A stretch of 64,000 bases of DNA from Candidatus Iainarchaeum sp. (GCA_030649735.1 JAUSFL010000036.1:64001-128000); one strand, 5' to 3'; shown: positions 358 through 14,971, counted from the stretch's first letter. The notes: generated by a model from the letters alone, not told the origin. Made by a program: numbers and translations.

Positions 358-372
358 TTTCAAACCTAAAAA

Positions 373-443
373 TGGACCCGGCGGGAATCGCACCCGCGCT
401 ACGTCCTTGCGAAGGACGAGTCCTACTACTAGACTACGGGCCC
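373..443 (-). tRNA. tRNA-Ala(CGC)
   Basis: Reverse complement GGGCCCG...CGTCC TT CGC AA GGACG...CGGGTCCA forms a cloverleaf with the G3:U70 Ala identity pair. No intron, no encoded CCA. Confidence 0.93.
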
Positions 444-473
444 AATAAGAAACAGTTGAAGGAAAGAGTATTT

Positions 474-531
474 ATGCGCTATTGCTTGCAATAGCGCGAC
501 GTACGCGCACGTAAACTGGACGTGACGGTTT
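474..531 (-). ncRNA. Putative structured tRNA-trailer element, copy A
   Basis: Lies directly 3' of tRNA-Trp. 31/39 nt identical to 14534-14572, with compensatory changes in three helices. Confidence 0.6.
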
Positions 532-532
532 T

Positions 533-605
533 TGGGGACACGGGGATTTGAACCCCGACTTAAAGGTCTGGAGCCTTTCGCGCTACCAGGTTACGCAATG
601 TCCCC
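533..605 (-). tRNA. tRNA-Trp(CCA), intronless
   Basis: Reverse complement GGGGACA...AAAGG CT CCA GA CCTTT...CGGGG TTCAAAT CCCCG TGTCCCCA. Confidence 0.95.
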
Positions 606-827
606 ATTCAGGTCTTGAAAGTAAGATAAAGAATTAACGTTCAAAAAAGTTTTAAAACTAGAGAAAAGCAAGAAAAAGGCGTCAATGCCAGGGTAAATCA
701 ACTTTTGCCATTGTAATCAAATTTACTTGGCTTGTTTTTTTAAACTTAAGCGCAAAACCTGCTTGAAAAATGCAAGGCTTTAAAATAGCTAAAGCATTAT
801 TTTAATCAAAGAACTAAAGTGGTCTCT

Positions 828-14370: not shown

Positions 14371-14447
14371 GTTTAAAACCAGTATAAAAACTAAAGCACG
14401 GAAAAAAAGACACTATTTAAATAGAAAATTTTTAACAAAAGTATTAT

Positions 14448-14530
14448 GCGGGGATGGCAGAGTGGTCTAATGCAACAGTCTCGAAAACTGTGTCCGCAAG
14501 GACTCGTCGGTTCAAATCCGGCTCCCCGCG
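14448..14530 (+). tRNA. tRNA-Ser(CGA)
   Basis: GCGGGGA...ACAGT CT CGA AA ACTGT, long variable arm GTCCGCAAGGAC, TTCAAAT loop, TCCCCGC G. TATA-like TTTAAATA about 30 nt upstream. Confidence 0.95.
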
Positions 14531-14585
14531 TGCCCGTCACGCCCAGGCAGCGTGCGCGAACGTCGAGCCATTTTCAATGGCTCAT
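14531..14585 (+). ncRNA. Putative structured tRNA-trailer element, copy B
   Basis: Lies directly 3' of tRNA-Ser; homologous to 474-531 with covarying helices. Confidence 0.6.
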
Positions 14586-14590
14586 TAATT

Positions 14591-14971
14591 CTACTTTTTT
14601 TGCGCAGTGTCTTCCTTCATTATCATTTTAACAATCAAGAAGACAACTAAAGCGATTATTGCAAAGTCTATTACTGCGCCGACAAAATCGCCAATCAAGA
14701 ATTTCACAGGGCCTAACTGAAGTATTGAAGCTCTCCAGTCTCCGCCGGGAACCAGCACTGCAATTAATGGCATTATCAAATCAGTCACTATTGCGGTGAT
14801 AAGCTTTGTTGACGCCACGCCAATAACAAAAGCAACAGCAAGAGCCAAAACCTGGTATTTTTTCAAGAACTTCTTGAAATCTGAAATGAAACCTTTTCCC
14901 GCATTCCGGACTTTAAGCAATTCTTCAGCTTTCAGTTTTTCTCTCAATAGATTACTTCCTAATTTGGCCAA
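14591..14971 (-). CDS. mscL: Large-conductance mechanosensitive channel MscL
   Basis: FKKFL...LALAVAFVIG...LITAIVTDLIMPLI...GDFVGAVIDFAIIA. Confidence 0.9.
   Translation of the reverse strand: MAKLGSNLLREKLKAEELLKVRNAGKGFISDFKKFLKKYQVLALAVAFVIGVASTKLITAIVTDLIMPLIAVLVPGGDWRASILQLGPVKFLIGDFVGAVIDFAIIALVVFLIVKMIMKEDTAQKK

Follow-up and report, generated by a model that had tools for sequence, protein, structure and literature searches.

A pseudoknotted repeat family at tRNA genes and other gene ends in Iainarchaeota-like DPANN archaea

The repeat described in this report lies directly 3' of two tRNA genes in a 64,000-nt stretch of DNA from Candidatus Iainarchaeum sp. (GCA_030649735.1, JAUSFL010000036.1:64001-128000), the whole of which we call the window; copy 1 follows tRNA-Trp(CCA) and copy 2 follows tRNA-Ser(CGA). 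Both belong to a repeat family of Iainarchaeota-like DPANN archaea that has a well-defined structure and is apparently undescribed. We give a probability of about 0.5 to the reading that the family is a non-autonomous insertion element dependent on a single-strand fold, present in the window as a passive tRNA trailer. No description of this element appeared in the published full texts that we searched; the supplementary lists of a census of MITEs (miniature inverted-repeat transposable elements; PMC11602168) might overlap with it.

A conserved fold with a pseudoknot

In its own polarity the element is 60-65 nt long and has the helix order A5'-B5'-A3'-B3'-P2-P3-P2'. Hairpin A has 4-9 bp and a loop of 4-11 nt and, at tRNAs, begins 0-3 nt past the discriminator base. 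Part of the linker that follows (5-14 nt) pairs with the loop of hairpin A to give helix B, and hence an H-type pseudoknot. P2 is a 3-bp helix, usually N-U-A with U-A-N', and leads into an asymmetric internal loop with YGU(C) on its 5' side and RKWAA on its 3' side; a 5' CGUC goes with a 3' AUAAA, and UGU or CAUA go with GGUAA. P3 has 8-10 bp, and its closing loop is commonly UUC or UGC.

P2 and P3 show strong covariation, and the pseudoknot is statistically supported. In an alignment (A3) of 81 copies, which were picked by covariance model score and are not an unbiased census, 97.9% of the P2 and P3 cells are paired and 11 of 11 pairs show changes on both sides, a result as high as which was obtained in 0 of 500 shuffles; sliding the partners against each other lowers pairing to 28-48%. 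For the pseudoknot, hairpin A was located automatically in 79 copies, and each loop was scored for its longest stretch complementary to the linker. The mean was 3.76 for loop and linker of the same copy, compared to 2.93 for loops and linkers of different copies, and none of 2,000 permutations reached the observed value. Individual paired changes in helix B include AGCU/AGCU versus AGGU/ACCU, seen in near-identical copies of one complete genome, and AUUUCG/CGAAAU versus AUUUCC/GGAAAU.

The element had originally been predicted from the window sequence alone, as a selected single-strand structure beginning at the tRNA 3' processing site, and for the two window copies that description holds. Both tRNA genes are where the prediction placed them, according to ARAGORN and Rfam, and the sequences quoted behind them are present. 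The paired differences that it pointed out between the two sites correspond to three helices of the family, all of which recur in the homologues: AAAC/GUUU versus UGCC/GGCA is hairpin A, CACGU/ACGUG versus CACGC/GCGUG is helix B of the pseudoknot, and the terminal hairpin is P3. The limits of the element were drawn about 6 nt too short in both copies, each of which extends farther through an A-rich 3' loop and a 3-bp closing helix. The doubt expressed about orientation was justified as far as folding goes, since both strands of the window copies fold about equally well (z -1.9 to -2.6), but the conserved loops are asymmetric and therefore fix the orientation: model scores are 50-57 bits on the one strand and do not exceed 17.6 bits on the opposite one.

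Most relatives have the classical H-type spacing, in which B5' has 0-2 nt on either side and 3-4 nt separate A3' from B3'. In the window copies B3' comes directly after A3', a nested extension of helix B is preferred by RNAfold, and a second register of helix B is possible with one mismatch. The pseudoknot register of both window copies is thus less certain than that of most relatives, because there is no spacer before B3' and the nested extension of B competes.

A search of Rfam with the whole window at the gathering threshold, and with both sites (350-700 and 14400-14700) at E<=10, returned tRNAs only. The internal loop fits none of the K-turn, the sarcin-ricin loop and the 11-nt tetraloop-receptor as we know them, and we claim no such motif.

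The suggestion that the trailer might be a self-cleaving ribozyme that frees the tRNA 3' end fared poorly, and we consider it extremely improbable. Like the theta (hepatitis delta virus [HDV]-like) ribozymes of phages, the element is compact and pseudoknotted and sits directly 3' of a tRNA, and it has conserved unpaired bases. Unlike them, it has no match to an Rfam ribozyme family at E<=10, has another topology, and occurs in both orientations, in introns that are removed by an endonuclease and far from tRNAs; moreover, RNase Z is the ordinary route of trailer removal. The HDV-like fold is a nested double pseudoknot: P1 surrounds both the 5' strand of P2 and P3, and P4 precedes the 3' strand of P2. 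In the pistol ribozyme the pseudoknot 3' strand lies between P2 and P3. In the element, hairpin A encloses only a 6-11-nt loop and the helix B 3' strand precedes P2, so that the helix order differs from both.

Two relatives carry larger or alternating units. In G019, a complete genome (L019, L034, L071, L074, L080-L085), most copies are trailed by a repeat of the hairpin A 3' arm and a different hairpin, giving a composite unit of about 110-130 nt in which the repeated arm could pair with the hairpin A 5' arm instead. In G014 (L009, L040, L043) the element forms arrays in alternation with a second short hairpin repeat, which reads GGGAC-loop-GUCCC, has conserved flanks and at times takes the place of hairpin A.

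Further copies in the same genome

The assembly comprises 1.28 Mb in 51 contigs. Inspection of the 90 nt behind each of its 38 ARAGORN tRNAs revealed the same architecture behind tRNA-Arg(CCU), tRNA-Pro(CGG), tRNA-Pro(UGG), where two copies stand in tandem, and tRNA-Leu(GAG). A structural pattern (3-bp helix, YGU(C), hairpin, RKWAA and closing 3 bp) has 9 matches genome-wide, compared to 1-6 weak ones in shuffled genomes, and the six matches with a hairpin of at least 8 bp are exactly those tRNA trailers. Within the window, the shared GC-rich blocks are confined to the two sites described above: a 12-mer and a 15-mer motif each have 2 exact matches there, with 0.46 matches expected for the 15-mer even when 3 mismatches are allowed.

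Seven copies were aligned (A1), giving 11 base pairs with 98.7% of cells paired and 8 pairs that change on both sides. The covariance model R1 found two additional copies in this genome, and all 9 matches with E<=0.03 lie at tRNA genes in the tRNA sense. Seven of the 9 follow tRNAs (Trp, Ser-CGA, Arg-CCU, Pro-CGG, Pro-UGG with two, and Leu-GAG). One R1 copy lies 58 nt upstream of tRNA-Pro(UGG) and is bracketed by a 20-nt repeat (19/20 identical). Over 61 nt it shares 80% identity with the copy trailing the same gene, and hairpin A shows a compensatory change between them. A weak match, at C46:60203-60248, is inside an intron-bearing tRNA of 174 nt (C46:60131-60304; locus L345 82-255, minus strand; Rfam, 39.5 bits) that ARAGORN missed.

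This intron-bearing gene lies about 3.7 kb before the start of the window and can be read as tRNA-Ser(GGA); its intron, about 89 nt long, opens with a degenerate copy of the element. Two other structured regions of the genome were seen near tRNAs. Past the element behind tRNA-Pro(CGG) there is a GC-rich stretch, unmatched by the model, with a strong fold (C41:6107-6160; locus L002, about 208-260; minimum free energy of the 115-nt trailer, -47.6 kcal/mol). At C46:3546-3618, tRNA-Ala(UGC) shortly precedes the 5' region of the 23S rRNA; the GC-rich hairpins behind it are probably rRNA processing stems and not the element.

Distribution among relatives

Model R1 has matches in 21 of 61 relatives, and model R2, rebuilt from the 81 copies, has matches in 38 of 151 genomes sampled across the phylum, so that the proposed covariance model search did bring further homologues. 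All listed R2 carriers belong to one DPANN order. None of the 11 genomes of families f33-f37 has a match, and some families inside the carrier order are also without matches (0/15, 0/13 and 0/12). Carriers can be rich in copies, the highest numbers per genome being 34, 29, 22, 15 and 13. Three sites of one complete genome hold identical copies, and tandem copies and inverted doublets are present among the relatives; together these make the picture of a proliferating repeat. Four of the doublets (L041 301-414, L060 244-345, L033 1501-1574 and L067) are convergent and share or abut their AT-rich tails, in which they closely resemble REPIN doublets.

In a species-level genome collection, the motif pattern occurs in at least 120 stretches, of which 80 listed loci were rescored with R2. 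Among the matches listed, five archaeal loci pass, assigned to Candidatus Iainarchaeum, Candidatus Diapherotrites or "uncultured archaeon," and no R2 match was obtained in the 75 bacterial motif loci. The named relatives agree with the DPANN affiliation assumed in the original prediction; the bare motif is therefore mostly chance. In viruses, at least 139 stretches are matched by one or other of two motif patterns, and R2 gave 0 matches in the 100 of them to which it was applied.

Placement and orientation

The contexts of the 81 copies were determined with each copy oriented by its own polarity and with tRNAs found by ARAGORN (introns allowed) and by a T-arm pattern. The asymmetry of the loops makes the strand assignments reliable, with forward scores of 22-57 bits and reverse scores of 13-18 bits. 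Directly flush behind a sense tRNA are 15 of the 81 copies, and 9 more lie farther downstream of a sense tRNA, as second copies or with inserts. Predicted introns hold 6 copies in the sense orientation, which begin no more than about 4 nt from the canonical 5' splice site, and 2 in antisense. In 7 copies the left end adjoins the 5' end of a tRNA on the opposite strand. In 2 it is the right end that adjoins such a tRNA, at its 3' end, and a degenerate spare copy of that tRNA end lies beyond the element; 2 more are near an antisense tRNA. The remaining 38 have no tRNA within 400 nt, so that the expected association with tRNAs is complete for the 9 copies of this genome and does not extend to all copies in relatives. 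The left end of the element is thus flush with mature tRNA boundaries of three kinds (3' ends when in sense, 5' ends when in antisense, and splice junctions), and it lies at other gene ends too. Relative to flanking open reading frames (ORFs) there was no orientation bias in a crude and noisy test of stop-free frames.

These placements bear on the possibility, which we regard as rather unlikely overall, that the element is a functional RNA, either cis-acting or released as a small RNA, with its 5' end made by RNase Z in trailers or by the splicing endonuclease in introns. Its internal loop would bind a protein, and it might stabilise or process the pre-tRNA or have a small RNA function of its own. 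Such an RNA is possible in this genome, where 9 of 9 copies are in the tRNA sense and ahead of the first T-run. Furthermore, copies that touch tRNAs are in sense more often than in antisense (21 versus 11), the left end falls within 0-5 nt of RNase Z or 5' splice sites, and the pseudoknot and conserved unpaired bases suggest a folded strand that is read by a partner. The copy at tRNA-Gln(CUG) is found in three families with conserved neighbouring genes, which also speaks for a function. Against this stand the 11 antisense copies, the 38 without a nearby tRNA, the lack of bias with respect to ORFs, the patchy distribution (113 of the 151 sampled relatives have no match) and the lack of an Rfam family, as well as the stem composition and target duplications described below.

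A somewhat less probable explanation is that the element is the core of a bulge-helix-bulge (BHB) tRNA intron, spread as a block by recombination, gene conversion or local duplication, with no dedicated machinery. Eight of the 81 copies are in predicted introns, the six sense ones near the 5' splice site; a degenerate copy opens the intron of a tRNA in this genome; tandem copies occur, as do copies common to different tRNAs of one genome. A precedent is provided by the near-identical introns found across tRNAs in Thermoproteales (PMC4090602). Most copies of the element, however, are outside introns and nearly half are away from tRNAs, and gene conversion between tRNA loci would not be expected to leave flanking repeats at unrelated targets that are not tRNAs. 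In one case, L008, the 3' end of the intron was read by eye as complementary to the anticodon region.

Stem composition and flanking repeats

Structured RNAs normally tolerate G-U pairs far above A-C mismatches. The element does not show this: P2 and P3 contain 9 G-U and 8 A-C in 852 cells and hairpin A contains 7 G-U and 10 A-C, with no excess of G-U over A-C in about 1,300 stem cells altogether. The stems are almost purely Watson-Crick, without strand asymmetry. The occurrence in both orientations, the lack of a G-U excess and the fresh-looking insertions make it less likely that one strand has been under long-term selection as an RNA, and they weaken the earlier suggestion of a noncoding RNA released by RNase Z.

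Exact direct repeats of 12-33 nt bracket 9 of 77 copies; in a control, 1 of 77 shuffled best-of-20 values reached 12. The end of the upstream repeat falls at -5 to +2 nt relative to the left end of the element, and the downstream repeat begins 5-62 nt past P2' (5-23 nt in 8 of the 9). Two of the repeats are the last 12-14 nt of tRNA-Gln, and in one of these cases the second repeat copy is followed by the original oligo-T. Others are of unrelated sequence, and one was read as including the stop codon of a convergent ORF. In this way the end of the interrupted gene is preserved by the duplication. A spare tRNA 3' end is found past the insert at L011 (14 nt) and L033 (12 nt) and in degenerate form at L016 and L029, and at neither window copy.

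A proposed insertion element dependent on its fold

Of the explanations offered for the window copies, a small tRNA-targeting mobile element fits best, given the multiple copies, patchy distribution, both orientations, intron and non-tRNA sites and target duplications. In the mechanism that we propose, a trans-acting enzyme would recognise the single-strand fold, as single-stranded DNA or as RNA, and the element would be inserted at staggered cuts. The long duplication would restore the interrupted gene end and let insertions at tRNA and gene ends survive, and copies in anticodon loops would survive by being spliced out with the intron. The window copies would be old insertions of which the duplication is no longer left, carried as passengers and cut off by RNase Z.

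Several points weigh against such an element. The mobilising enzyme was not found: neither Y1 transposase nor reverse transcriptase nor Cas1 is distributed in step with the element. The Y1 transposase (PF01797; IS200/IS605/RAYT type) is present in 18 of the 61 genomes, 8 of the 21 carriers versus 10 of the 40 non-carriers, and had no match in G000 (this genome), G014, G016, G057 or the 99%-complete G019, among which G057 and G014 are high-copy genomes. The reverse transcriptase PF00078 is in 8 of the 61 genomes and 2 of the 21 carriers, and Cas1 is in 7 of the 61 and none of the 21. An all-versus-all comparison of the ORFs of 30 loci revealed only the tRNA-Gln synteny and sister genomes, and no gene recurring beside the element. 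Clear flanking repeats are limited to the 9 of 77 copies, and of two sister genomes one has the upstream repeat and the other lacks it, so that some repeats could be later local duplications. In this genome no duplication is seen at the window copies or at 6 of the 7 other copies, and the tRNA sense of all nine also fits a co-transcribed functional RNA. Among the best-supported matches listed from the contigs of four DNA sequencing runs, no polymorphism between filled and empty sites was found, which is uninformative either way. Lastly, pseudoknots that carry conserved unpaired bases are better known in RNA than in DNA, and the exact abutment to RNA-processing sites is unexplained by plain DNA insertion.

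The coincidence of the left end with RNA-processing sites is the reason why we keep an RNA-mediated route in view, although we think it quite unlikely. An RNA that starts at an RNase Z or splicing endonuclease cut would be ligated by tRNA ligase to the ends of processed tRNAs or exons and copied back into DNA without a canonical reverse transcriptase. Such a route would create tRNA trailers and introns de novo and would account for the position of the left end at processing sites in all contexts. Long duplications of variable length resemble target-primed or template-switch insertions, and they fit no transposase class known to us. As to Cas1, all seven genomes that have it are among the element-free ones, in a sample that is small and made up of related genomes.

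Comparison with known systems

The element does not conform to the definitions of HDV-like or pistol ribozymes, repetitive extragenic palindromes with their associated transposases (REP-RAYT systems), IS200/IS605-derived elements, MITEs, casposons or retroposed RNAs. It is closest in habit to REP sequences and their doublets (REPINs), being short, multi-copy, extragenic and non-autonomous, with compensated hairpins that occur as singletons, in tandem and as inverted doublets. It differs from them in its second hairpin and pseudoknot, in its flush position at tRNA boundaries and in tRNA introns, in its long target duplications and in its archaeal host. Multi-copy palindromes in doublets, as expected of a REP-RAYT system, are found at L041, L060 and L033, but most carrier genomes lack a Y1/RAYT gene.

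Like the palindrome-associated transposable elements (PATEs) derived from the IS200/IS605 family and other single-stranded DNA transposons with hairpin ends, the element has sub-terminal hairpins, conserved unpaired bases, short pairing of a segment next to the hairpin foot with another part of the element, and strand polarity. The IS200/IS605 family is not known to make a target duplication and requires TnpA; the element has duplications of 12-33 nt, and TnpA is not co-distributed with it, so that we do not class it as a PATE. Integration by casposons or Cas1 gives a duplication of 14-15 bp, whereas the repeat lengths here are variable and no carrier has Cas1. For a retroposed small RNA, similar to a short interspersed element, the variable duplications would fit, but a reverse transcriptase is present in only 2 of the 21 carriers. 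The attC sites of integrons are folded single-strand sites that an IntI integrase recombines and that gene cassettes separate; resemblance to them is by analogy only, the copies of the element not being spaced by cassettes.

Some copies resemble integrative elements bounded by attL and attR in that a spare last 12-20 nt of the tRNA lies beyond the insert. The insert here is about 65-90 bp without an integrase, and because the non-tRNA repeats are unrelated in sequence, the repeats derive from the target and not from a fixed att core. The element is also not a classical MITE, since its ends are not mutual inverted repeats and the flanking repeats vary from 12 to 33 nt instead of having one short, fixed length. 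According to the MITE census, MITE density is very high in one Woesearchaea and one Altiarchaeum genome, so an abundance of small repeats in DPANN has precedent, and detection is based on terminal inverted repeats and short duplications, which the element lacks (PMC11602168).

The transposed BHB introns of Thermoproteales are alike in that near-identical units stand in different tRNA genes of one genome. In PMC4090602, which summarises Fujishima et al. 2010, their mechanism is given as unknown and the insertion is presumed to act at the DNA level. The element differs in being mostly in trailers, leaders and non-tRNA gene ends, in having a defined fold and in belonging to another phylum. It cannot be equated with BHB tRNA introns, as only 8 of the 81 copies, and neither window copy, lie within tRNA genes.

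The window copies and their neighbours

The coordinates of the two window copies and the adjoining genes are collected in Table 1. In copy 1 the parts follow in the order hairpin A, helix B, linker, P2, internal loop, P3 and P2'.

Table 1. Positions of the two copies, their parts and neighbouring features in the window
Feature	Position	Strand	Basis and remarks
tRNA-Ala(CGC)	372..444	-	ARAGORN; 23 nt downstream of copy 1
Copy 1, whole unit	468..531	-	sequence; fold; covariance model R1 match 465-512, 50.5 bits
Copy 1 core module	468..504	-	alignments A1 and A3, pair counts
Copy 1 P2	502-504 with 468-470	-	alignments
Copy 1 internal loop	5' CGUC 498-501; 3' AUAAA 471-475	-	alignments
Copy 1 P3	476-497	-	alignments; 10 bp, loop 486-487
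Copy 1 helix B 3' strand and 3-nt linker	505..512 (strand 508-512, linker 505-507)	-	sequence
Copy 1 hairpin A	513..531	-	5' arm 528-531, 3' arm 513-516; layout repeated in 79 homologues
Copy 1 helix B 5' strand, inside hairpin A loop	520-524	-	sequence
tRNA-Trp(CCA)	532..606	-	ARAGORN; Rfam tRNA, 64 bits at 533-605; 3' end adjoins copy 1
tRNA-Ser(CGA)	14447..14531	+	ARAGORN; Rfam tRNA, 56.2 bits at 14448-14530; 3' end adjoins copy 2
Copy 2, whole unit	14531..14591	+	sequence; fold; covariance model R1 match 14550-14594, 56.9 bits
Copy 2 hairpin A	14531-14534 with 14546-14549	+	sequence
Copy 2 helix B	14538-14542 with 14550-14554; linker 14555-14557	+	sequence
Copy 2 core module	14558..14591	+	alignments A1 and A3, pair counts
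Copy 2 P2	14558-14560 with 14589-14591	+	alignments
Copy 2 internal loop	5' CGUC 14561-14564; 3' AUUAA 14584-14588	+	alignments
Copy 2 P3	14565-14583	+	alignments; 8 bp, loop 14573-14575
First T-run (7) past tRNA-Ser and copy 2	14595..14601	+	sequence; likely transcript end

Oligo-T is a termination signal in archaea. Both window copies are in the tRNA sense, have no flanking repeat and precede the first T-run, and for this last reason they are probably co-transcribed with their tRNAs, as 3' trailers that RNase Z would remove. Beyond copy 1, after 23 nt, comes tRNA-Ala(CGC), itself ending in a T-run. Related strains in two other groundwater runs retain both window copies. In contigs of a related strain from run X2, position 520 has A>G on the + strand, which turns the 5' strand of copy 1 helix B from CACGU into CACGC.

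The tail of copy 1, AUAAAUAC (468-475), falls at about -32 to -25 of tRNA-Ala(CGC), where other tRNAs of the same genome have TATA-like boxes, and from its position it may now serve as the TATA box or promoter of that gene. Alternatively, tRNA-Trp and tRNA-Ala are co-transcribed. The placement of this tail, the location of the element at gene ends in both orientations and its stems, which are perfect palindromes, would also suit a regulatory module acting on duplex DNA, in which the hairpin and AT-rich tail form a promoter or terminator cassette. We find this very unlikely for the family, as a sense tRNA about 25 nt downstream is present in only 1 of the 81 copies, copy 2 is directed at the end of a convergent ORF, the stems vary freely with compensation, unlike operator sites, and a pseudoknot is meaningless in duplex DNA.

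Significance

The family may help to show how archaeal tRNA genes become interrupted. Intron acquisition is an open question; of tRNA introns in Asgard archaea, the abstract of a 2026 preprint says in closing that "how they arrive remains open" (10.64898/2026.10.13.758758). The element offers a traceable unit in all of the relevant states: as a free insertion with duplications, as a unit flush with tRNAs in either orientation, and as the opening portion of an intron. Its pseudoknot and the hairpin with an asymmetric loop make a defined substrate for biochemistry. Furthermore, the covariance model of the element improves tRNA annotation in DPANN genomes, as with the intron-bearing tRNA that carries a copy in this genome and escaped ARAGORN.

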